Positions 3,307 to 41,097 of a stretch of 64,000 bases of DNA are shown here, in pieces. The notes beneath the pieces were generated by a model, which did no database searches, was not told where the DNA came from, and saw only the letters and a list, made by a program, of their open reading frames with translations. The stretch is taken from the IMG/VR virus record IMGVR_UViG_3300032116_000102, positions 1 to 64,000 of that record; one strand, 5' to 3'. Origin of the DNA: a virus. The position numbers were made by a program, and so were the translations under genes. Within the stretch, counting starts at the first letter, position 1; each line of letters begins with the position of its first letter.

Positions 3307-4833
3307 TCAGTAATCAAGCTGAAGCTGTCCTTTCCTTGCCAACCCAGTGACTAACCACACAAGTGCGTCGACCGTGTCATCGTGACTGCTAACGCCAAAA
3401 TTAGTCAGTTCTTCAAACATAGTAGTGAAATTCCTGTAGCGGTTAAAGATAATCTTGCGGTCTTCAAACATGCCCATGATTCCACGAAAGCGAGCAAGTT
3501 TATCGGCACGGAATCCTTTGACTGGATGCCAGATTAAGTTGTAAAGGCTCTCTTGATTTAAACAAACACGTTTGAAGTCGGCCTCCAGGGATGCCTGGTA
3601 CTGGACAGCTTCACTCCAAATGTCACACGTTGAATAGGTAGGGAAGTAATTATCGTTTGCATCCTTGCCAAGAATTGACCAGTCATTGAGAAGTTCTTTG
3701 AGGGCGTCCAGTTTCTCAAGGTTGCCCATGACGCGCAGGCGCCGATAATCAATGATGTGAATGCGATCTCCAATGCGACCACCAAGAACCATGACGGTGT
3801 AATCGTTCTTTTCCTTTGTACCAGCAGAAAGATCAACCCCAACTCCCAAGGTGTCAAACTCTGTAGAGATCTCAGCTTTAACAATCAGCTCAGGCGCAAG
3901 CGATAGCTCGTTCTGTCTGATGATTTGATTCATGTACTGGAATGAAAAAGCAATTGGTGCTTGCCTTTTCTTTTCCTTTAGGTAGTCCAATGACCACATC
4001 TCTGGCCAATAGGAAATTTCATCCCCAGTCTTGGGATCATTGCCAATGGCGGAAAGAACAATTTGCGTCCAGTTGTTTTGTTCGTTGAATGTAGTGGCAT
4101 GAATATCGTCATGTCGGAAGCGAGTGCCAAGGCAGATCGCCCTTGCACCCTCAAACATGGTTGGTGCAATCACAGCATTCCAGTTGTCCTGCATCATCTT
4201 TCGGATGTCAGGGTTAGAAATATCCGCAGCTGATTTAATAGCGTCATCAATCATGACGAGGTGAGAACGCTTGGAGGTCACCGAACCCTTAAGACCTGCG
4301 GCGCAAAGCGTAAATTGTTCGTCACCTGTTACGTCAATACCAGCAAACTTGTGATCAATGGACCAGTACTCATTACTGGTGACATTCTTGAGCAGACGTA
4401 CCTCAGGGAATACTTCTTGATATCGTTTGCTTTCAATGATTCTTTTAATGGTTGCCGACTTAGAGCGAGCAATATCAACCGTATAGGACAAATACAGGAT
4501 TTGAAGCGGACGCTTGGCTTGCGTGTGGATTCCAATAGCCCAAGCTGTCAACAAGCCAAGGACTGTACTTTTGGCTGAACCCCGTGGGGCAAGTAGATCA
4601 ACGTTGGGTCCAGCAATCCGAAGCAGGCAGCTACTGTCCTCTTCTGTTACAAAGTGACGATGCCAGTCTTTATGGTGTTGAGCAGGAGGCTTATCAGCTA
4701 CGTACTCACAAAAGAAACCAAAATCTTCCCGTGCCTTTTTAAGGGAATCAATATCTTTATGTGGCTTGATCGCGTAGTTTTTGGAAGCAGCACGTGCGTT
4801 CCTTCGATAAGCCAGATGAAGATAAGAAGGCAC
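3307..4833 (-). CDS. terL: Terminase large subunit
   Basis: Walker A APRGSAKST, Walker B LVMIDD, GTRF coupling motif, RNase H-like GVDLS and HDDTVDA. Confidence 0.93.
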   Translation of the reverse strand: MPSYLHLAYRRNARAASKNYAIKPHKDIDSLKKAREDFGFFCEYVADKPPAQHHKDWHRHFVTEEDSSCLLRIAGPNVDLLAPRGSAKSTVLGLLTAWAIGIHTQAKRPLQILYLSYTVDIARSKSATIKRIIESKRYQEVFPEVRLLKNVTSNEYWSIDHKFAGIDVTGDEQFTLCAAGLKGSVTSKRSHLVMIDDAIKSAADISNPDIRKMMQDNWNAVIAPTMFEGARAICLGTRFRHDDIHATTFNEQNNWTQIVLSAIGNDPKTGDEISYWPEMWSLDYLKEKKRQAPIAFSFQYMNQIIRQNELSLAPELIVKAEISTEFDTLGVGVDLSAGTKEKNDYTVMVLGGRIGDRIHIIDYRRLRVMGNLEKLDALKELLNDWSILGKDANDNYFPTYSTCDIWSEAVQYQASLEADFKRVCLNQESLYNLIWHPVKGFRADKLARFRGIMGMFEDRKIIFNRYRNFTTMFEELTNFGVSSHDDTVDALVWLVTGLARKGQLQLDY

Positions 4834-14866: not shown

Positions 14867-15074
14867 GTGTGAATTTTTGGGGTAAGTAGGGAGTTTACGT
14901 ACAAATTAGGGAAAATAGTACATATTTATACAAAAAGCGGCCCTATACAGTTCTGAAAAGGGTACAAAATTACCTGACGCTTCTCCCACCCCCCAACCGA
15001 GGGAGATGCTGTGTAGAAAAAAAGAACAGCATGAGTTATCTAAGGATGATTCTCATTAATATCACCGGAATTTT

Positions 15075-15090
15075 GATACGAATTCGTATC
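15075..15090. promoter_or_regulatory. Perfect 16-bp palindrome GATACGAATTCGTATC (copy 1), putative operator
   Basis: The 19-mer at 15073-15091 recurs identically at 16690-16708. Confidence 0.55.
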
Positions 15091-15224
15091 GACCGAGGAA
15101 TGTCACGGTTTCCTGACATGTTTGGGGCAAACTTAGCGCCCCGCTCTCCCGCGCTCGAAATAGGACAGTGAGCGGAACGGACTTCAAGCATTCTCTTGTT
15201 TTATCAAGGGAGTTGATTGAGTTC

Positions 15225-15250
15225 ACGTCGAGCTGGACGTTAAACGTAGC
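15225..15250 (+). ncRNA. Degenerate copy of pseudoknot leader (family D)
   Basis: ACGTC-gagctg-GACGT-TAAAC-gtagc, 23 nt before ATG 15274. Confidence 0.35.
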
Positions 15251-15273
15251 GCTACCCCATCGCAACTTCACTC

Positions 15274-15456
15274 ATGTTTGCAGTTACCTACTTCGACTAC
15301 GGCTGCCCCGACTTCGGTGGTCAAGAGTATTACGAGGAGGAGAAGTTGTTCTCCAACTGGCCTGCTGCCGAAAGGTACATTCGTTCCCTCGAGGATTACG
15401 AATTCATCTCGGCGGTATATCACTTCAGCTGCTTCGAAGACGACATTCCGTTCTGA
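15274..15456 (+). CDS. Small acidic early protein ending in an SSB-like tail (FEDDIPF)
   Basis: 60 aa, acidic/aromatic; first gene of the plus-strand early region. Confidence 0.65.
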   Translation: MFAVTYFDYGCPDFGGQEYYEEEKLFSNWPAAERYIRSLEDYEFISAVYHFSCFEDDIPF

Positions 15457-15519
15457 GTACCAGGCGTGACGCCAGGGGATCGAATCCCCTACTCAGTATT
15501 GCCCCCAGCGGAGATGGGC
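15453..15519 (+). ncRNA. Structured leader family A, copy 1 (T-loop-like junction)
   Basis: CTGAGTA/TACTCAG closing stem, GGCG/CGCC hairpin, AGGGG-ATCGAAT-CCCCT, then TATTGCC hairpin. Confidence 0.55.
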
Positions 15520-15528
15520 GCCGCACAC

Positions 15529-15693
15529 ATGGAGAAATCCGTGATGGTCTACGTTGTCACATTGTGTGATCTGTATGCTGATCACCTGATGAATGTCTTT
15601 AGCAGCAAAGAAGCTGCTAATGCATGGATAGCGAAACAGGACAAGGAGGAGGGCGAGTATTGGCTTATCAATGCCATGGTCGTCATCAACTGA
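15529..15693 (+). CDS. Small early hypothetical protein
   Basis: MEKSVMVYVVTL...VFSSKEAANAWI; start reassigned downstream of the RNA element. Confidence 0.55.
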   Translation: MEKSVMVYVVTLCDLYADHLMNVFSSKEAANAWIAKQDKEEGEYWLINAMVVIN

Positions 15694-15754
15694 TCCGTCA
15701 AAGCGGGTTCCAGGGTGCAAACCCCTGGACAGTTATTGCCACAATCCCGTGGCA
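15688..15754 (+). ncRNA. Structured leader family A, copy 2
   Basis: AACTG/CAGTT, ATCCG/CGGGT, TCCAGGG-TGCAAAC-CCCTGGA, then TATTGCCAC...GTGGCA. Confidence 0.55.
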
Positions 15755-15769
15755 TCCACTCAACGCAAC

Positions 15770-15937
15770 ATGATTCGTCAGCGATTGTCCCAGCTTCTTG
15801 CCGTAGCAGCGGTCAAGGTAGCTCAAGATCAAACTCCTGAGCGCATCAAAGCTCAACTCAAAGTGCGGCGTGATGCATTGACTCATGAGGTCAATGATTA
15901 TCGCAACGCACTGTCCAACTTCATCGCAGCTAAGTAA
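15770..15937 (+). CDS. Small early hypothetical protein
   Basis: MIRQRLSQLLAVAAVK...; CA-rich leader. Confidence 0.55.
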   Translation: MIRQRLSQLLAVAAVKVAQDQTPERIKAQLKVRRDALTHEVNDYRNALSNFIAAK

Positions 15938-15939
15938 CC

Positions 15940-16182
15940 ATGAAACCTGTCATGATCTACCAGCCTTCCTGCGAACATAACTTACGTGTCGCATGGTATG
16001 GCGGTGAGAGTACACAACTTCACTTCGAGAAGCTCAACATCCAGGGCGAGTGGTACGACAGAGATGTCCGTACCCTTGGCCATGGTATCCCCACAGGGAT
16101 CAAGGAGATGCTTCTCGAGATGGAGAACTACTATCACGAAGGTATCATCCTTGAACAAGAACGTATTTACCAAATGATGTGA
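15940..16182 (+). CDS. Early hypothetical protein
   Basis: ORF track; tight packing. Confidence 0.6.
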   Translation: MKPVMIYQPSCEHNLRVAWYGGESTQLHFEKLNIQGEWYDRDVRTLGHGIPTGIKEMLLEMENYYHEGIILEQERIYQMM

Positions 16183-16185
16183 ATG

Positions 16186-16235
16186 ATTCCTGCTCTAAGG
16201 GGCTACGGCCCTTTACTGCAGGAATTAACTCCTGC
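16186..16235 (+). ncRNA. Structured leader family B, copy 1
   Basis: TCCTGC-TC-stemloop-CT-GCAGGA-N6-TCCTGC. Confidence 0.55.
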
Positions 16236-16259
16236 TTCATTCAACTCAACTCAAGTCAA

Positions 16260-16661
16260 ATGTCTGACTACAAGAAGCTCCCTGACTTCCAGCAAACCGT
16301 ACTGCACGGACGCATTGCTCACATGGAGGTGGTCGACTACCAGGATCAGAAGTTCCTCTCTGTATCCCTGGTCCACACCATCTCCGAAGCAACGGACGTA
16401 CGTGTACGGTTTACCAACAGCAACGGCCTGCTTACGGCATTCAACAATGGCACTCTTGTCGTAGGACAGGAGCTGACCATCAGCGGTACCATCAAGGGCA
16501 TTCGTTCCTTCTACATGAAGGACGATGTCCTGACACCGCTCAAGATGCCGGAACTTCAATTCCGTTGCATGAGTTATGCCTTTGGTTCCAAGCCTCAGCC
16601 CAAAGCTGAAGCTGTAATCACACCAGTGGCAGAACCTACGCTGGAAGAAATTCCCTTCTGA
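16260..16661 (+). CDS. SSB-like OB-fold protein
   Basis: VLHGRIA...VGQELTISGTI strand pattern; acidic C-terminal EEIPF. Confidence 0.6.
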   Translation: MSDYKKLPDFQQTVLHGRIAHMEVVDYQDQKFLSVSLVHTISEATDVRVRFTNSNGLLTAFNNGTLVVGQELTISGTIKGIRSFYMKDDVLTPLKMPELQFRCMSYAFGSKPQPKAEAVITPVAEPTLEEIPF

Positions 16662-16669
16662 GACAGCAC

Positions 16670-16741
16670 TCCTGCTCTTAACCCTTCCGTTGATACGAAT
16701 TCGTATCGGCGGTGGGTTTACTGCAGGACTGAACATCCTGC
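16670..16741 (+). ncRNA. Structured leader family B, copy 2 (contains palindrome copy 2 at 16692-16707)
   Basis: TCCTGC-TC-stemloop-CT-GCAGGA-N7-TCCTGC. Confidence 0.55.
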
Positions 16742-16760
16742 ATCCACCTCATACAACACT

Positions 16761-17045
16761 ATGCCAATCACCATTGATCATCACGACATCCTCAAAGCAC
16801 TTGGGCTTTACAAACTTGAGGTAACAGACTACTACCTTGAATTTGATAACAACCATGTTTATATGCATTGGGTTTCCTGTCCCAATGACATCGAAGAGTA
16901 CTTGAAGAATGAGAATGATATTTATTTATGCCTTGACTTTCAAGTCAAGGGCAAATGGTTATCTGCTGAGTACTTTGTCAACGACAAAGAGGCGGTAACT
17001 GAACGTCCTTTCATTAACTGCCGTTATCTTTTGGAGATCAACTGA
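16761..17045 (+). CDS. Early hypothetical protein
   Basis: ORF track; follows a family B element. Confidence 0.6.
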   Translation: MPITIDHHDILKALGLYKLEVTDYYLEFDNNHVYMHWVSCPNDIEEYLKNENDIYLCLDFQVKGKWLSAEYFVNDKEAVTERPFINCRYLLEIN

Positions 17046-17046
17046 C

Positions 17047-17250
17047 ATGAAACACACAACCAGGCTCGGACCCAACCGTTACATCAGACTTGATTCTTAC
17101 GGTGAGTCTCGTGAGACACGCCGTTTCAATATCCTTTGCACCCTCTTCGTCATTGCCATCACGGTTATGACGGCTGGTGCAATGGTCGGCGTCGACATCA
17201 CTAACCTCAACCCACAGAACAATGAGAACACACATCGCCCTGGTCGCTGA
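17047..17250 (+). CDS. Small membrane protein
   Basis: One hydrophobic helix ILCTLFVIAITVMTAGAMVGV. Confidence 0.55.
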   Translation: MKHTTRLGPNRYIRLDSYGESRETRRFNILCTLFVIAITVMTAGAMVGVDITNLNPQNNENTHRPGR

Positions 17251-17449
17251 TCGTTCCGGTCGTTATGCCCATGTCTGGGGCACAGCCCAAACCTTTTCTC
17301 TGTTTCATGATCAACTCGAAGACATTGGCTGCGAGGTGATCGAAAACCAATCCGATGATTGGGACGGCTGCACCAGAGATGAAATTGCTGAGGACTGCCT
17401 GTCAGTGCATCAGCTGCTCAACGACTCGGACTTCATCCCACACGACTGA
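17222..17449 (+). CDS. Small acidic hypothetical protein
   Basis: MRTHIALVADRSGRYAHVWG... Confidence 0.55.
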   Translation: MRTHIALVADRSGRYAHVWGTAQTFSLFHDQLEDIGCEVIENQSDDWDGCTRDEIAEDCLSVHQLLNDSDFIPHD

Positions 17450-17556
17450 CTACATCTGGTGTCTCGCAAACACAAGACGCTAAGGCTGGTGCTTGCATCT
17501 TTGTACGTACCAGCTATTCTCTACCTGCATCCACTGCACACAGCTCACCCAAAGCC

Positions 17557-18036
17557 ATGGAAGCCCTTAGCCAACTTGATGTCACAGCACCCGATCACGT
17601 CTCTGTCATTACCAGGGACGGCAAGGTGACCATCTCTGTCCTCAAGGACGGAACCTCTGTCACTCTTGGTTTCCCGATCAAAACACCTTGGATTGATACG
17701 CATCCCCGTCCCCCTTTGCAGCAGTCGCCAGCGGAGGAGATTGGGCGGCGGATTACCAAGGAAGAAGGCCTTGCCTACTTCGAAGAGCTGGCACGGAAAG
17801 ACTCAAAGAACACCACTGTTGTTACCAAGACCAAACGCAGGTCTCCCATTGGTAATTGCAAGTTGACTCCCGAAGCTGTTCGTGAAATCAAGCTGATCCT
17901 GGCTGATAACAAGACGATGAGTCGTTTTGGTTCCAGGCAGCAAGCTTACGAAAAGATTGCCGAAGGCTATTCGGTGAGTCACCATACAATTTCCAACATC
18001 CATAAGGGACTGGCCTGGCGCCAAGTCATCGTGTAA
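17557..18036 (+). CDS. DNA-binding protein with C-terminal HTH of the type appended to HNH endonucleases
   Basis: KLTPEAVREIK...IAEGYSVSHHTISNIHKGLAW; no HNH motif. Confidence 0.55.
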   Translation: MEALSQLDVTAPDHVSVITRDGKVTISVLKDGTSVTLGFPIKTPWIDTHPRPPLQQSPAEEIGRRITKEEGLAYFEELARKDSKNTTVVTKTKRRSPIGNCKLTPEAVREIKLILADNKTMSRFGSRQQAYEKIAEGYSVSHHTISNIHKGLAWRQVIV

Positions 18037-18058
18037 TCAACAGCAACAACACAAACAT

Positions 18059-18108
18059 CTGGGCCTCCACTCTTGAGAATCATTCTCAGTAAGTGGTATA
18101 AGTCCCAG
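18059..18108 (+). ncRNA. Structured leader family C, copy 1
   Basis: CTGGG-CCT-CCACT...AGTGG-TATAAGT-CCCAG. Confidence 0.65.
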
Positions 18109-18132
18109 GACATTCATTCAGTTCACCTCAAC

Positions 18133-18339
18133 ATGACTGAAGACAACAAACGGTATCACCTCATCATCAACGTTGATGAGAAGTATGCCATCGTCAATGC
18201 ACTAGCTTTTTATCATGCTCATCACACGCTTGGTTCTTTGCTTGACGAAGACGAGCGTGAACAATATGAGCTTGCATTCAAAGAAGATGGTCCAACTCTT
18301 GTTGATACATTAGCCACAAGAGTTGCCAATACCTTCTGA
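18133..18339 (+). CDS. Early hypothetical protein
   Basis: MTEDNKRYHLIINVD...; start placed after the RNA element. Confidence 0.6.
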   Translation: MTEDNKRYHLIINVDEKYAIVNALAFYHAHHTLGSLLDEDEREQYELAFKEDGPTLVDTLATRVANTF

Positions 18340-18367
18340 AAACCACACACTTCACTCAATTCAAACC

Positions 18368-18505
18368 ATGACTAACCTTCAAACACTTGACGAAAATTAC
18401 AATGCTGATCTTCTAGATGCAATGGCTGACATTGCAGCTGAACAAGAAGAATCAATGCGTAACTCAGATCCACAAGAATGGGAGGGTTACGATGACGAAT
18501 CGTAA
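18368..18505 (+). CDS. Small acidic protein
   Basis: MTNLQTLDENYNADLLDAMAD...; CA-rich leader. Confidence 0.5.
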   Translation: MTNLQTLDENYNADLLDAMADIAAEQEESMRNSDPQEWEGYDDES

Positions 18506-18580
18506 GCACGAAGATGACATCGTTATTGTCATCATTGCCATCATCTCCATTCTGATCACCACACTCATCGACGCAATCCA

Positions 18581-18949
18581 ATGTCTTACATCTCTGAACT
18601 CCAAAAGTTCTACCCCAGAACCTACAAAGCTCGTCTCGCCATCCAACGATACGAAACCCACAAAGAGTGGGAACACGAAATCCCAACGACTGTCACCGTC
18701 CACGAAACCACGCTCAACTACGGCGGTCCAGAGGAAGGTGGATGGTGGTACCAAGCAGGACTCCCGGTCCTTACCCACTGCATCTTCTCCAAGAAGCAAG
18801 CGGTCCAAACCTTCATCCAATACTTCGACGAATACGAAGTCGCGGACCAGCCAAGCCTCGGGCTTTCAACAACATATCACAACTACGAAGTCAACTTCGC
18901 CAATGGATACGCTACTGTCTACCCCGAATCCAAACCACACTACTGCTGA
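18581..18949 (+). CDS. Phage hypothetical protein
   Basis: YGGPEEGGWWY motif; normal composition, unlike the overlapping frames. Confidence 0.65.
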   Translation: MSYISELQKFYPRTYKARLAIQRYETHKEWEHEIPTTVTVHETTLNYGGPEEGGWWYQAGLPVLTHCIFSKKQAVQTFIQYFDEYEVADQPSLGLSTTYHNYEVNFANGYATVYPESKPHYC

Positions 18950-19197
18950 TGACTCTAACTCAGATCAAACCACCCGTAGGGTTGAGCATCAACCAACGGA
19001 ACCTCTACACATACTTTCTAAACCACAGGAAGAAGTACAAGCACACACCGTGCTACGTACCAAGGTGTCCCGGTCAAAACTCAAGGGTTGAACAATATCT
19101 CAATGCATTAATCAAGCTGGAACAATACGGCTTGATACGCGTTGACAGAAGCAGTGATCACTACACAAGTTGGATCATGCTTCCACCAAAGAACTAA
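18949..19197 (+). CDS. Small winged-helix-like protein
   Basis: LSINQRNLYTYF...YLNALIKLEQYGLIRVDR. Confidence 0.5.
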   Translation: MTLTQIKPPVGLSINQRNLYTYFLNHRKKYKHTPCYVPRCPGQNSRVEQYLNALIKLEQYGLIRVDRSSDHYTSWIMLPPKN

Positions 19198-19276
19198 TCA
19201 CCTACGTCATATAACACTTCCGTTATATTGTTTGCTATTCGCAAATAGCGAATACATGCCAATACTTCAATCCACA

Positions 19277-19317
19277 CCTGGGCATCACCAACGTAAGTAC
19301 GGTGTGTAAGTCCCAGG
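19277..19317 (+). ncRNA. Structured leader family C, copy 2
   Basis: CCTGGG-CAT-CACC...GGTG-TGTAAGT-CCCAGG. Confidence 0.65.
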
Positions 19318-19345
19318 ATTTACTCAAACTTTACCTCACTTCACC

Positions 19346-19549
19346 ATGTCTCAAAGCGAGTACTTCTACCTTGAAGAAGTTCGTTCCATCTTGAAGAATG
19401 TCCTTGCACGTGAGAGCAAGAGACATCAGATGGACCAACATCTCACGCCACATACCGAAGATGTGATCGAAGAGATCCTCAACATGCTTGAAGAGGAGCT
19501 CGACTACGATCCAACGCCTCAATACGATCCAAGCCTTGCTGGCATCTAA
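19346..19549 (+). CDS. Small acidic hypothetical protein
   Basis: ORF track; follows a family C element. Confidence 0.6.
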   Translation: MSQSEYFYLEEVRSILKNVLARESKRHQMDQHLTPHTEDVIEEILNMLEEELDYDPTPQYDPSLAGI

Positions 19550-19682
19550 GTCAGCCCCCTACAACCCCCGAGGAAGTACCAGGGGGGATACCTTTAGTTC
19601 TATAAGAAACTATTATGTATTCCCCCTTATCCACTCCTTGACAACCCTGGTAGACTCAACACACTTACCACACACTCAACTC

Positions 19683-19889
19683 ATGTCTTCCAACAAACCA
19701 ACCATTCCCAACTCTGTAGATCCTCAAAAGCTTCAGTTCATGCAACTGACTGCAAAGATGAAAGAATCTGCAGACAAATATGGCGTCGGCTTCATCGGAG
19801 GCTTTGTTGCCTCCGATGGAGAAGTCTTTTACATGTCAAATATGAATGACGAAGACACCCAAGCATTGATGCCGGACAGTCTCAAATGA
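19683..19889 (+). CDS. Hypothetical protein
   Basis: MSSNKPTIPNSVDP...; CACTCAACTC leader. Confidence 0.55.
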   Translation: MSSNKPTIPNSVDPQKLQFMQLTAKMKESADKYGVGFIGGFVASDGEVFYMSNMNDEDTQALMPDSLK

Positions 19890-20052
19890 AACAAGTTATT
19901 TACAAAGAAATCATTACTATTGATGGACGTGAATACACAGTTGCTAACTGTGATTATTCTGAATCAATCTACGAATTACTTAAAGACAATGTCTTAGAAG
20001 ATGACAACCAAGAGATTGTTAATCACATTGTTGATGACATTGTTAATTCCCA

Positions 20053-20250
20053 ATGACTAAGAAATCAATCATCAGTTTTGATCGCACCATCCATGGTGTA
20101 AACATCACCGAACACGGTATCAAATCTGTATCTAAAGCAATCAAGCTTGGGCCATTTCAACTCACACTCAACGCCAATCCCAATGGTGTCAAAGGATCAC
20201 TCAGTATTCCTGGCACAGGCTTGAGCATCCCAAACATTAAATTAATCTAA
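20053..20250 (+). CDS. DUF4236-like small protein
   Basis: KLGPFQLTLN...SLSIPGTGLS. Confidence 0.55.
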   Translation: MTKKSIISFDRTIHGVNITEHGIKSVSKAIKLGPFQLTLNANPNGVKGSLSIPGTGLSIPNIKLI

Positions 20251-20251
20251 A

Positions 20252-20313
20252 GATCTGGGCGTCTGTACTCGTTGTGCAAACAGCACAGAAAGAGACAGTG
20301 TAAGTCCCAGATC
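20252..20313 (+). ncRNA. Structured leader family C, copy 3
   Basis: GATCTGGG-CGT-CTGT...ACAG-TGTAAGT-CCCAGATC. Confidence 0.65.
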
Positions 20314-20335
20314 CTGTCCACTTACTCAACTCAAC

Positions 20336-20524
20336 ATGTCACTATTCCTCGACGAACTTACGTTGTTTGATCGCATCAATCTTGCTGCCTGCGCTGCACG
20401 CAGGGCACAGGACAACACACTTGATGCTGATCGATTCCACAATGAGTACAAGACTGCACGTCTGTGGCATAACCACAAGTGCGTCATCACCAAAACTTAT
20501 TCCTACGTGGATGACAACTCATGA
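20336..20524 (+). CDS. Hypothetical protein
   Basis: ORF track; follows a family C element. Confidence 0.55.
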   Translation: MSLFLDELTLFDRINLAACAARRAQDNTLDADRFHNEYKTARLWHNHKCVITKTYSYVDDNS

Positions 20525-20769
20525 CAATCCTTGCCATCGAAGACACTCACTTCACTGATACCCATGTCACAGTTACAGCAGTTGTGGAGGACATGCGTCT
20601 GCTCTATCGGGCGACTCGCTTCGACCCTGAAGAGTGGGCTCCTGCATTGTGTACAACAACTGTCGAACTGGATCCAGAGGAACCAATCCCTCTTGATGAA
20701 GATGGGTTCGCTGAGTATCTTGATCACCTCGATCCTCAATGGCAACTCGTTGACATGAGCGAAGAATGA
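20521..20769 (+). CDS. Acidic hypothetical protein
   Basis: ORF track; ATGA overlap. Confidence 0.6.
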   Translation: MTILAIEDTHFTDTHVTVTAVVEDMRLLYRATRFDPEEWAPALCTTTVELDPEEPIPLDEDGFAEYLDHLDPQWQLVDMSEE

Positions 20770-20891
20770 TTGGTTTCTCAATTGAATTCAAACGCTGGTA
20801 CTTTGTACTGCGTGGTCCCAGGGGCAGGATCTACCTAGCCACTGGCTTCATGAAGTGACGTGTTAAAACAACACCGCTTTAGTTAACACAT

Positions 20892-20919
20892 CGTCCTGGA
20901 CATGACGTTAAACTGTCCA
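20892..20919 (+). ncRNA. H-type pseudoknot leader (family D)
   Basis: CGTC-C-TGGACA-T-GACG-TTAAAC-TGTCCA. Confidence 0.7.
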
Positions 20920-20941
20920 TTCCTTTTACCCATTCAATTCA

Positions 20942-22648
20942 ATGCATTTCCAACTTCCCTCCAACCTCCAACAAGAACTCCTGGCTTATGATCCAAAGCT
21001 CAAGGCTTTGGTTAAGCAGGATGACAACAAGAAGCCTGCTAAGAAAGCTAAGTATCCCCTTGGCAACATCCCGCATCTCATCCCTGAAGACATCGTGCGC
21101 TCCAGCTACCAACAGGATGCAATCAACTACATCAACTCACAGCTAGCACCAGGGCGCTTTCGTTTGTTTACCAAGCTTGTGGACGTAGCAAGTTCACAAG
21201 CACGCACTGTACCTATTGCTGTTATTTATCACTTCGAGCAATGCTGGTACGCAGCATGGCTTCCACAGAAAGGCGAAGACTATGTCTATGGCTACGCCTA
21301 CGCATTCAAGAACACCTCAGCTGCTGCTAAGCAAGTTCCAAACAGCATCTGGAACAGCAAAGAACAGTGCACTGAACACACCATCGGTCGTGGTGCACAG
21401 GTCTTTACCTACTCAAGAACAGTAACTAAGCAAGACATTATCAACGGCAAGGACGGTCGCAACTGGCGTGCGATGGGTATAGCTAGCTACTACCAGAAGA
21501 CATGCGATATCAATGAAGCAATCAACTCGTTTGATTCTGCATTGATGGAAACCATTCCTACATGGAGTGACTGTCGTTCTATGTTTGATCGCTTGCGTTG
21601 CAACAACATTGTTGATGCACTTGATATGCCTTCTTTCTTTAGCAAGCCTATTGCCGATAAGACTAAGTATGAACTCACGATTGATAACTTGATTGCAACA
21701 TCTAAGTTACTAAAGAATGACTATGGTTATTCTTCTTACGGTACATGTTTAACCAAGACTGAAGCAATCATTACTACTCCGTATATTAAGAAGCAGCTTC
21801 AAGCAATGCTTGATCGTTCAACTGCTGAGTACAGCAACCCAGAGAATACACAACGGAAGGCTATCAAGTATGGCTTCAAGGAATTTGAGCAGACCTGTAA
21901 TTCTATTGAATTCATTATTCGTATCTGGCCTGATTGCCCTATTGACCACTACCGTACTTACTTCAATGAACTACGTTGCATCAACTTAAACAACCTGAGG
22001 TATGACGAACGTCTTGTCGAATGGCTACGCACCAACATGTCTGTTGCATCGTTCTTCAACATGCTGCGTAAGTTCAATGAGGCAGAACCTACCTCTCATC
22101 GCAGTTCATACAGTGACTATGATTACCACGTCAAATCATTCTTTGAAATGAATGACACTTTCTCCATGATCATGCGCATCCTGGAGAACGACAAACAAAT
22201 CGAGGCACCTAAGCGCTGGCGCATGCCTGACTTCCATGACTACGTGCAAGCCGAAGCATGGAAGGTAACCAACCGCAAGGAATCACTGCACCAGGATTTG
22301 TTCCCTACTCCGATCAAGGTCAACGTAGACGGCAGTGACTGGACATTCTTCCAGCCTGTCGACACACACCAGCTGGCACAGTGGGGACAAGCAGTCCGTA
22401 ACTGTGTGGGTTCTGCAGGACGCTATGCAGATGACATCAAGAAACGCAAGCACTTCATTGTGCTCTGCATGATTGATGGCAAGCCCACCTTCACCATCCA
22501 ACTGGATGTATCCATGGGTGTCATGAACGTCGTACAGATTGCTGGCGTAGCGAACCAGCGCCTGTCTGTTGACCAACATGAGCAGTACTCCACTGCCTTC
22601 AAGCAAGCCTTGCAATCTCGTGAATCTGAGCTAAGCTCTAAGAGCTGA
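20942..22648 (+). CDS. PcfJ-like domain protein
   Basis: C-terminal FHDYV...LAQWGQAVRNCVGS...FTIQL...VQIAGVAN. Confidence 0.7.
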   Translation: MHFQLPSNLQQELLAYDPKLKALVKQDDNKKPAKKAKYPLGNIPHLIPEDIVRSSYQQDAINYINSQLAPGRFRLFTKLVDVASSQARTVPIAVIYHFEQCWYAAWLPQKGEDYVYGYAYAFKNTSAAAKQVPNSIWNSKEQCTEHTIGRGAQVFTYSRTVTKQDIINGKDGRNWRAMGIASYYQKTCDINEAINSFDSALMETIPTWSDCRSMFDRLRCNNIVDALDMPSFFSKPIADKTKYELTIDNLIATSKLLKNDYGYSSYGTCLTKTEAIITTPYIKKQLQAMLDRSTAEYSNPENTQRKAIKYGFKEFEQTCNSIEFIIRIWPDCPIDHYRTYFNELRCINLNNLRYDERLVEWLRTNMSVASFFNMLRKFNEAEPTSHRSSYSDYDYHVKSFFEMNDTFSMIMRILENDKQIEAPKRWRMPDFHDYVQAEAWKVTNRKESLHQDLFPTPIKVNVDGSDWTFFQPVDTHQLAQWGQAVRNCVGSAGRYADDIKKRKHFIVLCMIDGKPTFTIQLDVSMGVMNVVQIAGVANQRLSVDQHEQYSTAFKQALQSRESELSSKS

Positions 22649-22698
22649 AGCCACAGCAGGGGCATCCTATCCTCGTAAATGGGATGCCTCTTTAACTC

Positions 22699-22917
22699 AT
22701 GTCTGATTACACCGACGAACAACTCCTTGCCATGGCCATGGCAAACATTGGTGAGTACATCACAGATAACTCACCTCAATACATCCTGATCGAAGACGAT
22801 CCTCGTAATGAGGATGATTACGACACATGGAGTTACGGTACTGAACCGTTACCTCATGATCACACTTGGCACTCCACATCGATTGATGTAGAGGTAAGCC
22901 CAAGTCAGGCCGACTAG
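22699..22917 (+). CDS. Small acidic protein
   Basis: ORF track. Confidence 0.55.
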   Translation: MSDYTDEQLLAMAMANIGEYITDNSPQYILIEDDPRNEDDYDTWSYGTEPLPHDHTWHSTSIDVEVSPSQAD

Positions 22918-22936
22918 TCCAACGGCAGAGACAAGC
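22908..22936 (+). pseudogene. Orphan 5' fragment of tRNA-Leu (acceptor 5' strand plus D arm)
   Basis: GGCCGACTAGTCCAACGGCAGAGACAAGC parallels the tRNA 5' end at 23306-23336; compensatory D stem GTC/GAC vs GCC/GGC. Confidence 0.7.
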
Positions 22937-23323
22937 ATGAAACTCTATGGTCCATACACTCGCAAAGATGGCAGACAACATGTCATTCTTTACGAGAACG
23001 GCAAACGCAAAACAGTAAGCTATCCCAAGTATTTACTTGAGACAAAGCTTGGTCGATCTCTTTTGCCTCATGAAACCTGCGATCACATTGATGGAGATCC
23101 TTTAAACAATTCTTTAGATAACTTGCAGATGCTATCCAGATCGGATAACGTACGCAAGCACGCAGCTCTTTCACCTGCAGAGCTGGGGACTTTCACTTGT
23201 CCTATTTGTTTGTGTTCATTTACCAAACGAATGCATAGCACTAGGCACAATCGAAAGCAAGGAAAACGTGGACCTTATTGTTCACGTTCATGCGCAGGTA
23301 AAGCTGGCCGACTAGCCCAATAG
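22937..23323 (+). CDS. HNH homing endonuclease
   Basis: CDHIDGDPLNNSLDNLQMLSRSDNVRKH; C-terminal CPIC...YCSRSC Zn finger. Confidence 0.85.
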   Translation: MKLYGPYTRKDGRQHVILYENGKRKTVSYPKYLLETKLGRSLLPHETCDHIDGDPLNNSLDNLQMLSRSDNVRKHAALSPAELGTFTCPICLCSFTKRMHSTRHNRKQGKRGPYCSRSCAGKAGRLAQ

Positions 23324-23383
23324 GAAGCAGGCAAGTGACTTAAAATCACTCCAGTCCCGGTTCGAATCCGGGGTCGGCTACCA
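23306..23383 (+). tRNA. trnL: tRNA-Leu(TAA), CCA encoded, short variable loop
   Basis: Acceptor GGCCGAC/GTCGGCT, anticodon arm AGTGA-CTTAAAA-TCACT, T arm CCCGG-TTCGAAT-CCGGG, ACCA end. Confidence 0.9.
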
Positions 23384-23412
23384 ACTCAACACTCAACACT
23401 CAACACAACATC

Positions 23413-23775
23413 ATGCAACTCTTTGCAGCCTTCAAGCATCTCATCCCTGAATTCCACGCTTACTCTGATGAAGAGCAGCGTTACAACCTTGGAGCAACCT
23501 GGACAGCGGCTGACGGCCTTAAGGACTATTACAACCTCGAACTACGGTACGTTCATAACTCAGAGCGTCTTGCCCTCAACGGCGATCCCCAGCCTGATGG
23601 CAGCTGGAAATATGTGGAACCCTCCGGCCGTGTCCATACCATGTCGGCAGAGCGAGCCAAGATGTTCATGGAACAAACCCATGCCCATGCCACTATCATG
23701 TGCGGCATGCTGGATCGCCTCAAAGAATCAGGATTGATGGACCAGGTGGTAGACACCAACGCCCAACCTGCCTAA
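23413..23775 (+). CDS. Hypothetical protein
   Basis: ORF track; (CTCAACA)x3 leader. Confidence 0.65.
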   Translation: MQLFAAFKHLIPEFHAYSDEEQRYNLGATWTAADGLKDYYNLELRYVHNSERLALNGDPQPDGSWKYVEPSGRVHTMSAERAKMFMEQTHAHATIMCGMLDRLKESGLMDQVVDTNAQPA

Positions 23776-23793
23776 GATCACAGCGGAATGTTC

Positions 23794-23819
23794 GGCCCCT
23801 GCGCAAGCGGGGGTCTTTT
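23794..23819 (+). terminator. Intrinsic terminator
   Basis: GGCCCCTGC-GCAA-GCGGGGGTC-TTTT. Confidence 0.65.
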
Positions 23820-23823
23820 CTTC

Positions 23824-24147
23824 ATGATCTCCAAATCAATTATCTATCACGATGTAACCGAACTCATTGCTGATTGCATACCAGACAAAGCATGGCCTGC
23901 AGTACGTCATGAAATCATTCAGCAAATGCTAGACAACATGCCGTCAGATGTCATGATTCAATTGACTGGAAGACCTGATGCATTTGATACTGCTGAGCAA
24001 TTGCTCCAACAGTTTTATATGAATGAACCAGGTCACAAACTGATACAAGATTCATTTGATCTTGTTGGCAAAGAAGAAACTGCATTCATTCTTGATTCAC
24101 TGAACCTCACATCATCTGATGGCGTTTCAGAAACAGATCCTTCCTGA
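23824..24147 (+). CDS. Hypothetical protein
   Basis: ORF track, start moved past the terminator. Confidence 0.55.
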   Translation: MISKSIIYHDVTELIADCIPDKAWPAVRHEIIQQMLDNMPSDVMIQLTGRPDAFDTAEQLLQQFYMNEPGHKLIQDSFDLVGKEETAFILDSLNLTSSDGVSETDPS

Positions 24148-40516: not shown

Positions 40517-41097
40517 TGGAATTTTTTAATGAAGAATCACTAGCCAATCTTCCTGTTGATTACGGTGATATTGCAATGACGCGTGGACAAGCGCGTCAAA
40601 TCATTGATCGGTTTGCCCAGGAAGCTGTTAAGAAAAACATCACGCCAGATGCTTTGTATGATGGTCTTTATTACTTAGGACAAGTTGGACAAAGTCCTGA
40701 CTTTTCTCGTAGCATGATTCGCAACACGTTAAAGAGTCCTATGGGATCTTTAGTTGTGGAAAATCCTGGGCTTGCATCTCAAGTTGTTGGTCAATTTGGG
40801 GGGATGCTTCAAGCCGGTGGTGTTAATCCAGCCTTAGCTGGTAAACATATGGGATTAATTGGAAGCCTTTTACAAGAAGCAAAAAAAGATAATCTACTCC
40901 GTTCAAACGTAACAACTGAAGAGGTTCGTAAAGAAATTCAACAACCTATGCACGGTGCCTTGCAAGACTGGTTAAAAGCAAATCAAAAAAACTCTGCAGT
41001 TGCTGATGTTTTATTAAAGTCTCGTTTCGGTGCTGCAAACATCGGTGCAGCAGCAGCAACTAAGTTTGACCTACCACGTCTTGCTGTTGATTTTTAA
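40513..41097 (+). CDS. Hypothetical protein
   Basis: ORF track. Confidence 0.6.
   Translation: MMEFFNEESLANLPVDYGDIAMTRGQARQIIDRFAQEAVKKNITPDALYDGLYYLGQVGQSPDFSRSMIRNTLKSPMGSLVVENPGLASQVVGQFGGMLQAGGVNPALAGKHMGLIGSLLQEAKKDNLLRSNVTTEEVRKEIQQPMHGALQDWLKANQKNSAVADVLLKSRFGAANIGAAAATKFDLPRLAVDF

Follow-up and report, generated by a model that had tools for sequence, protein, structure and literature searches.

A short hairpin with a conserved internal loop at gene junctions of cyanophage genomes: a candidate RNA punctuation module new to Rfam

The present work concerns a short hairpin, named here family C, which recurs between genes in the first 64 kb of an 85,559-bp phage genome of the IMG/VR collection (record IMGVR_UViG_3300032116_000102). 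This stretch of 64,000 nucleotides (nt) is the window referred to below, and coordinates are those of the window unless stated otherwise. Both stems of the hairpin covary, and the internal loop that separates them is conserved in a 2x6 form, 5'-CA opposite 5'-RUAAGN. A first-pass annotation of the sequence had noticed three copies, beginning at 18059, 19278 and 20255, and this original observation is confirmed and considerably enlarged here, while the interpretation placed upon it is partly supported.

Copies, stems and internal loop

The exact search pattern, CTGGGCNT-N(x)-TRTAAGTCCCAG, has three matches in the window, all on the plus strand (18059-18108, 19278-19316 and 20255-20310), with none expected. 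No match was obtained in 100 dinucleotide-preserving shuffles, and the rest of the 85,559-bp genome contains no additional exact match. A covariance model likewise finds no significant match in the window beyond these three copies, which score 27.5, 37.3 and 29.3 bits in order of position (E <= 5.5e-6), and all three adopt the structure as drawn when they are folded. The three positions are thus borne out, together with the inner stems that had been described for them (CCACT/AGTGG, CACC/GGTG and CTGT/ACAG) and the distance of 24-29 nt from the end of the hairpin to an ATG, which was measured as 24, 29 and 25 nt. The count of three holds for the exact pattern, but two variant copies had been overlooked, one at 22865-22904 and the other at positions 78544-78571 of the genome.

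Three further scans of IMG/VR, in which the 3' loop, the 5' loop or the outer three pairs of the lower stem were left free in turn, allowed the conservation of each part to be read from the others; the matches are related to each other, every scan fixed some part of the motif, and the inner stem was required by no search. With the 3' loop free, TRTAAGN was found in 68 of the 95 unique matches listed, the remainder being random-looking, and with the 5' loop free, CAT was found in 82 of the 90 matches listed, with an invariant C. When the outer lower-stem pairs were free, 111 of the 142 matches listed were fully paired, in 17 different fully paired combinations that include CTG/CAG, TTG/CAA, ATG/CAT, CTA/TAG, AAG/CTT and GGA/TCC. 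The inner stem also varies, its first pair being C-G in 39 cases and U-A in 15, and its second pair C-G in 34, A-U in 8, G-C in 4 and U-A in 3. In an alignment of 54 sequences, 91% of the cells are paired, and the covariation score of 0.395, against 0.129 for shuffled alignments, was reached by none of 500 shuffles; pairing falls to about 52% if the partner is shifted by one column. The covariation of the inner stem, and the picture of variable stems round a conserved loop, therefore survive both the free-part scans and the 54-sequence alignment, and the loop bases proved to be conserved in the larger alignment to which the first-pass annotation had looked for a check.

The loop had been described as a conserved internal loop of 3x7, and it is indeed conserved in the scans that did not fix it, but the last base is variable (T 62, C 22, A 4 and G 2 in the unbiased scan) and the geometry is really 2x6. 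The third base of the 5' loop and the first base of the 3' loop change together, being mostly U.U, with C-G in 9 copies, G.U in 17 and A-U in 4, which indicates that these two bases pair and that the true loop is the 2x6 form. TGTAAG stands in the loop in 86% of the copies.

The apical part, on the other hand, is free in length. The smallest and commonest form has 28 nt, CTGGGCAT-CC-tetraloop-GG-TGTAAGTCCCAG, and accounts for 119 of the 323 unique copies; it has 5+2 canonical pairs and a small number of loop pairs, about 7-10 in all. A GNRA tetraloop closes 31 of 90 minimal copies, and the apical loops otherwise vary freely (UUAC, UUCG and others). The top strand is predicted to fold slightly better than its complement (p 0.012), which speaks weakly for a sense RNA. 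Sequences with which the loop GUAAGU could pair, ACUUAC or CUUUAC, are modestly enriched downstream, an enrichment that is confounded by lineage.

Distribution and novelty

The IMG/VR scan with the original pattern recovered at least 119 stretches, and the inner stem is paired in nearly all of the IMG/VR matches listed. Across 282 viral loci (2.36 Mb), at least 435 structured matches were counted, against 2 for the reversed-pattern control; these correspond to at least 299 unique copies in at least 236 loci, with a maximum of 7 per locus. The viral loci comprise 95 that are similar to Synechococcus phage S-EIV1 and 187 others, and the lineages that bear the motif are S-EIV1-like phages (the window's own kind), S-CBWM1-like myoviruses, S-CBS1/3-like siphoviruses and others, the three named relatives all infecting Synechococcus. 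The closest cultured relative of the window genome is S-EIV1 (67% identity in the DNA polymerase), and S-EIV1 is also the only one of 50,697 phage isolates in which the motif was found; its two copies lie in the early region (KJ410740, 41440-41474 and about 40729-40784, minus strand). A blastn search of the 28-nt form against the phage isolates gave only two chance hits, and a megablast search of the region against the 50,697 phage records gave no match.

In 596 Gb of prokaryote genomes there were 55 exact matches, about the level of chance, and none had the inner stem except for one on a phage-like contig. This sole structured copy from a cell collection lies on a 2.5-kb contig (L161 / G001:C8) binned with a Melainabacteria metagenome-assembled genome, and, given that it has an S-EIV1-like G-poor leader, the contig is probably mis-binned phage DNA; the covariance model found 2 chance-like matches in 150 genomes from the phylum of that assembled genome. 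Among the genomes searched the motif is phage-specific, and diverged host versions are conceivable. A host RNA motif copied by phages was rejected on the same counts, the 55 exact matches being unstructured bar the one on the phage-like contig.

At gathering thresholds, Rfam release 15 recognises only two transfer RNAs (tRNAs) in the window. At E <= 10 over 18000-20400, copies 1 and 2 are free of any hit and copy 3 meets only a snoRNA match at chance level (16.6 bits), so that the known family that might have spoken against novelty was not found. A search of the literature by sequence strings and by topic returned nothing relevant. Judged from its sequence, family C ranks as a structured RNA motif that is new to Rfam and is without a described counterpart in the literature searched.

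Genomic position

The copies occupy the junctions between genes. A stop-codon triplet lies within 12 nt upstream of the hairpin in 242 of 323 copies, and an ATG lies 25-34 nt downstream in 154 of them, while a co-directional open reading frame (ORF) ends just upstream in 216 of 299 copies and an ATG-started ORF of at least 40 codons begins within 90 nt downstream in 228 of 299. Some loci have copies at nearly every cistron junction. At orthologous junctions both flanks are kept and only the tip of the hairpin changes.

The downstream unit is not always a small gene. Of the 12 distinct copies listed ahead of a tRNA-Leu(UAA) in S-EIV1-like genomes, 9 end 3 nt from the tRNA and three end 4-6 nt from it; in another lineage the hairpin ends 5 nt before a tRNA-Asn. 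A distance of 47-52 nt separates the hairpin from the major capsid gene downstream of it in S-CBWM1-like myoviruses; in an AT-richer phage group it follows the portal gene, and in S-CBS1/3-like siphoviruses (GC content of about 61%) it follows the gene that comes after the large terminase. In these siphovirus contigs the hairpin is succeeded by about 350 nt of G-rich sequence, with many GGCNNGGC repeats and no convincing ORF, which is a possible candidate for a phage non-coding RNA. Given that copies stand ahead of tRNAs and of this non-coding stretch, a function in translation only does not fit.

An example of the G-rich stretch is found at 3375-3748 of locus L012 (minus strand), with similar GC-rich loci in L080, L089, L284 and L299, and it also has two hairpins of the CGGAGGG...CCCUCCCUG type.

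Individual copies and neighbouring features

In the window, structural genes occupy the minus strand up to about 14.5 kb, and small plus-strand genes follow in series from about 15.9 kb; the biggest ORF of the genome encodes a primase of 875 amino acids. Copy 1 (18059-18108, plus strand) has the lower stem CTGGG/CCCAG, the loop CCT / TATAAGT, the inner stem CCACT/AGTGG and the apical hairpin TTGAGAA-TCA-TTCTCAG, and it folds at -20.4 kcal/mol (z -2.97; 27.5 bits in the covariance model). A leader of 24 nt (18109-18132) leads to the ATG of a 68-codon ORF (18133-18339), homologues of which come after the motif in 8-10 related loci. Copy 2 (19278-19316, plus strand) is an exact match with the loop CAT / TGTAAGT and the inner stem CACC/GGTG, scores 37.3 bits (E 5.8e-9) and holds a second GTAAGT hexamer in its apical loop, ACGTAAGTA. 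Its leader of 29 nt (19317-19345) reaches the ATG of a 67-codon ORF (19346-19549), whose family comes after the motif in about 27-31 related instances. Copy 3 (20255-20310, plus strand), also an exact match, begins 4 nt past the stop codon of ORF 20053-20250 and combines the loop CGT / TGTAAGT and the inner stem CTGT/ACAG with a long apical arm, folding at -27.7 kcal/mol (z -5.27). The same junction in relatives has either the 56-nt form, as here, or the 28-nt form, and the leader of 25 nt (20311-20335) precedes a 62-codon ORF (20336-20524) that belongs to the commonest gene family downstream of the motif (34-36 instances). These three plus-strand leaders, like other leaders, are G-poor and without a Shine-Dalgarno sequence, and several contain CACCUC or ACCUCA, which is identical, not complementary, to the 16S anti-Shine-Dalgarno.

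The two variant copies came from the relaxed scan. Copy 4 (22865-22904, plus strand; CTTGG-CAC-TCCACATC-GATT-GATGTAGA-GGTAAGC-CCAAG) is contained in the closing codons of ORF 22699-22917, with 3 nt between its end and an orphan 5' fragment of a tRNA-Leu. Its covariance score alone is weak (9.4 bits, 22862-22907), and near-identical copies in related loci end 3 nt before an intact tRNA-Leu(UAA). Copy 5 (genome 78544-78571, minus strand, outside the window) has the 28-nt form ACTGG-CAT-TG-CTTG-CA-TGTAAGA-CCAGC and begins 3 nt past the stop of a 275-codon minus-strand ORF of the late region.

About 30-55 nt upstream of copy 2 there is a non-coding block (19223-19249, plus strand) that is conserved at the same junction in 12 related loci and consists of a -10-like box of the TAnTAT type, here TTATAT/TATATT and in relatives TAATAT or TAGTAT, with the palindrome GCTATT-CGCA-AATAGC after it; CCAATAC repeats are also present in the conserved block upstream of copy 2. 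Given this conserved box, copy 2 would lie within a transcript, and the arrangement suggests that it forms part of a 5' untranslated region transcribed from an upstream promoter. The apical palindrome of copy 1, TTGAGAA-N3-TTCTCAG (18074-18090), was found again in about 20 related contigs, and its TTGAGAA half is constant even where the 3' half has diverged (TTAGCAAG, TTCGCAAG). This constancy in the face of a diverged partner suggests that the sequence is constrained by more than pairing, for example as an operator or as a -35-like box.

ORF 22699-22917, at copy 4, is conserved (72 codons, …DPRNEEDYDTWxYGTEPLPHDHTWHSTSI…) and reads through the hairpin, and the tRNA-Leu-linked copies in general lie in the last ~16 codons of a conserved ORF that runs on to a stop codon inside the tRNA; in relatives the homologues of ORF 22699-22917 end at a TAG inside the D-arm of the tRNA. 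Constraints from coding, RNA structure and tRNA overlap at this locus. The orphan tRNA-Leu 5' fragment lies within 22865-22936 and an intact tRNA-Leu(UAA) at 23306-23383. In an RNA-library contig of a relative, 22934 is followed directly by 23337, the 402 nt between them being absent, from which it follows that relatives exist without the inserted HNH gene.

A second element, family D, is an H-type pseudoknot found at 20892, 27804, 31227, 32342 and 35915 (and 15225), of the type CGTC-C-TGGACA-T-GACG-TTAAAC-TGTCCA, in which the changes of stem 2 compensate. A PcfJ-like gene of 568 amino acids (20942-22648) is preceded by family D in the window and by family C in three other loci (L040, L019 and L209), which would make the element families interchangeable.

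The RNA data consisted of three low-share RNA or possibly-RNA runs, which gave, on 15000-24000, patchy contigs of relatives at 90-99% identity. No usable transcript ends were found in those contigs, and their covered and uncovered bins support no inference.

A putative punctuation module and the alternatives to it

The reading that is tentatively favoured, with a probability that falls a little short of even, is that family C is a cis-acting punctuation module that marks or protects the ends of RNAs, its loop being read by a factor acting in trans. The conserved loop would be recognised by this factor, probably a host endoribonuclease or RNA-binding protein of the Synechococcus/Cyanobium-type cyanobacteria, and the RNA would be cut or capped beside the hairpin. 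Such an event would give a defined 5' end to the downstream unit, whether an mRNA with an unstructured leader of ~25-30 nt, a tRNA or a non-coding RNA, and would leave a protective hairpin on the 3' side of the upstream RNA. The reading builds on the structure, the conserved loop, the rules of strand and position, the restriction to phages and the spread over lineages. It supposes that the motif would act as RNA and that recognition of the loop would result in processing or stabilisation. A host origin of the factor is probable given that unrelated phage lineages share the motif and that no shared phage protein was found near it, and the presence of several copies per operon, the tight placement from stop to next unit and the short, fixed tRNA spacing are what a punctuation mark would be expected to display.

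Several points weigh against this proposal. A tblastn search of all ORFs of the window genome against the 187 loci that are not S-EIV1-like found no protein in more than 6 loci and none adjoining the motif. RNase P is not known to need a hairpin 3 nt ahead of a tRNA, and the invariant loop is more than plain end protection would demand. The cultured phages S-CBWM1, S-CBS1 and S-CBS3 are without the motif, which must therefore be dispensable or mobile. The aligned sequences are related, so that the counts are not independent events, and several searches fixed parts of the motif.

A protein- or ligand-binding module, or a nuclease site, had been suggested as the function in the first-pass annotation and is plausible on the present sequences. 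Ligand binding looks the least likely of these, given that there is no expression platform and that copies stand directly ahead of tRNA genes. With regard to nucleases, the RNase III hairpins that separate early genes of phage T7, like the corresponding sites of the Bacillus phage SP82, are among the closest known parallels. They too are repeated, related hairpins with an internal loop, situated between small early cistrons some tens of nt before the start codon, and presumably provide the upstream RNA with a 3' hairpin. The intercistronic position with an internal loop is shared by family C. A T7-type site, however, spans about two turns (roughly 20 bp) of mostly double-stranded RNA, whereas the commonest form of family C, with its 28 nt, is far below two helical turns; its loop is also invariant across unrelated phages, and its copies precede tRNAs, a capsid gene and a non-coding stretch as well. 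A classical RNase III site is accordingly unlikely on grounds of size. The hairpin hp2 of the E. coli rne leader, which senses RNase E, illustrates that an endoribonuclease can read an asymmetric internal loop.

Family C may also be an operator that is bound and not cut, in which a phage or host RNA-binding protein on the loop controls translation or loads an antitermination factor onto RNA polymerase, a doubtful but genuine possibility. Protein sites typically have a conserved asymmetric loop set between stems that vary, a spacing of ~25-34 nt to the ATG would put the hairpin at the edge of the 30S footprint, and the exchange of families C and D ahead of the same 568-residue gene is what class-specific operators would produce. 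A purely translational operator is hard to reconcile with the copies ahead of tRNA genes and the non-coding stretch, and no shared candidate protein was found. As for antitermination, the boxB of the lambda nut site and the put site of HK022 are small phage RNA stem-loops of early transcripts that act in cis on the transcribing polymerase, and put also has a conserved asymmetric internal loop, but nut and put are single elements of their operons, each restricted to its phage group, whereas family C is found at nearly every junction in some loci and in several lineages; up to 7 copies per 15 kb exceed what antitermination would need. A further reading is an RNA that acts by itself, as a very small self-cleaving ribozyme, an aptamer or a module for tertiary docking (e.g., onto rRNA), which is quite improbable. 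The strict conservation of the loop and the lack of a protein partner would agree with such an RNA, as would the GNRA tetraloops of about a third of the minimal copies (31/90) and the resemblance of the CAU / UAAG loop to the 11-nt GNRA-tetraloop receptor, UAUGG / CCUAAG. That receptor has UAAG opposite YAU and two flanking G-C pairs; it is an asymmetric internal loop like that of family C, which has two extra bases (UR) and a bulged N. Rfam, however, gave no ribozyme or riboswitch match, the apical loops vary freely, no expression platform is present, and 28 nt is, to our knowledge, smaller than any natural self-cleaver. The likeness to the receptor, as well as to hp2, is a lead. In its boldest version, very improbable, the 28-nt core would be an autonomous RNA device, either a minimal self-cleaving ribozyme or an AA-platform docking module on a host machine; were this true, it would dock the ribosome, RNase E or RNA polymerase directly, or be the smallest natural self-cleaving ribozyme, and cyanophage families would share a way to punctuate or launch transcripts that have no Shine-Dalgarno sequence.

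Other alternatives place the function in the DNA, and the most serious of them is a cassette similar to the promoter-early stem-loop (PeSL) of T4-type phages. PeSL cassettes have near-consensus sigma-70 -35 and -10 boxes and a stem that is a simple G-run/C-run, variably placed (PMC2839356, PMC4122927). Like family C, they are repeated among small ORFan early genes, patchy in close relatives and plausibly spread by recombination, and the placement of the stem-loop between an upstream stop and a downstream start is common to both. In a cassette of this kind, the hairpin would attenuate transcription from upstream and the unpaired TRTAAG would be a -10-like box with a start just after the hairpin, CAU being conserved only through the need for partial pairing with this box. 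TATAAG does agree with TATAAT at 5/6 positions, TTGAGA (in the 49-nt class) or TTGAC (in one lineage) stands 17 nt upstream of TGTAAG, the base right after the hairpin is G in 75 of 157 copies, and the 3-nt tRNA spacing would suit a fixed start site. Nevertheless, this reading is unlikely. The sigma-70 boxes of PeSL, spaced by 16-18 nt, have no consistent equivalent in family C, where the prevailing TGTAAG has G in place of the key A at -11, with a further G at -7, and where the 33-, 39- and 56-nt classes have no -35-like box at all and its spacing elsewhere drifts over 16-20 nt. Furthermore, the 2x6 geometry is invariant and common to different virus lineages, whereas the stem-loops of PeSL occupy five different positions, a canonical -10-like box is already conserved upstream of copy 2, and a T-run follows the hairpin in only ~10% of cases. 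The remaining DNA-level element, a hairpin promoter for a phage RNA polymerase (N4, T7-like or Syn5) or a folded recombination site similar to attC, is scarcely probable. Early promoters of N4 are a few conserved elements that contain a hairpin (for the virion RNA polymerase, a stem of 5-7 bp and a loop of 3 nt), to which the three copies in the early region may be compared; the 5' half of the motif resembles the Syn5 promoter, ATTGGGCACCCGTAA; and conserved arms, an unpaired spacer and a variable tip recall attC. Promoters of either phage need a phage RNA polymerase gene, yet no PF00940 polymerase was found in the window genome or in S-EIV1 (the Syn5 positive control gave E 4.2e-77), nor does the DxDGD motif of two-barrel RNA polymerases occur in six frames, and the myovirus and siphovirus lineages that bear the motif have cultured relatives not known to carry a polymerase of their own (the contigs themselves were not checked). 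Syn5 promoters are not part of such a hairpin, and both lack the 3' half. The strict gene-sense orientation and the fixed distances point instead to expression, and the kept flanks of orthologous junctions, where only the tip changes, speak against recombination sites.

Some candidates were rejected outright. The likeness to the Syn5 promoter is a coincidence, given the missing 3' half and polymerase, and a contiguous double-stranded promoter of the T7-like (Syn5) type does not agree with halves that are split by 8 to >40 variable nt and with two covarying stems. An attC-like site (R-box RYYYAAC/GTTRRRY) was discarded because the arms CTGGG/CCCAG covary freely and the flanks stay conserved at orthologous junctions. 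A terminator would be expected to have a run of T, and only 16 of 157 copies have four consecutive T in the 10 nt after them. The S8-binding site, the K-turn, the T-loop and the T-box specifier do not fit in strand lengths or key bases.

Implications for cyanophage biology

Freshwater and estuarine cyanophages of Synechococcus and Cyanobium are ecologically important, and almost nothing is known of how gene expression is organised in the cyanophage lineages that have no RNA polymerase of their own. The motif is short, abundant and statistically solid, and is a candidate for a new Rfam entry. Given that it is common to podo-like, myovirus and siphovirus lineages and was missing from the genomes of cells that were searched, these different phages probably engage the RNA machinery of the host at one shared point, marked by the motif. 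A 28-nt bait and a cultured carrier, S-EIV1, provide a handle for finding the factor that would read the loop and, beyond that, for learning how transcripts without a Shine-Dalgarno sequence are processed and expressed in these phages.

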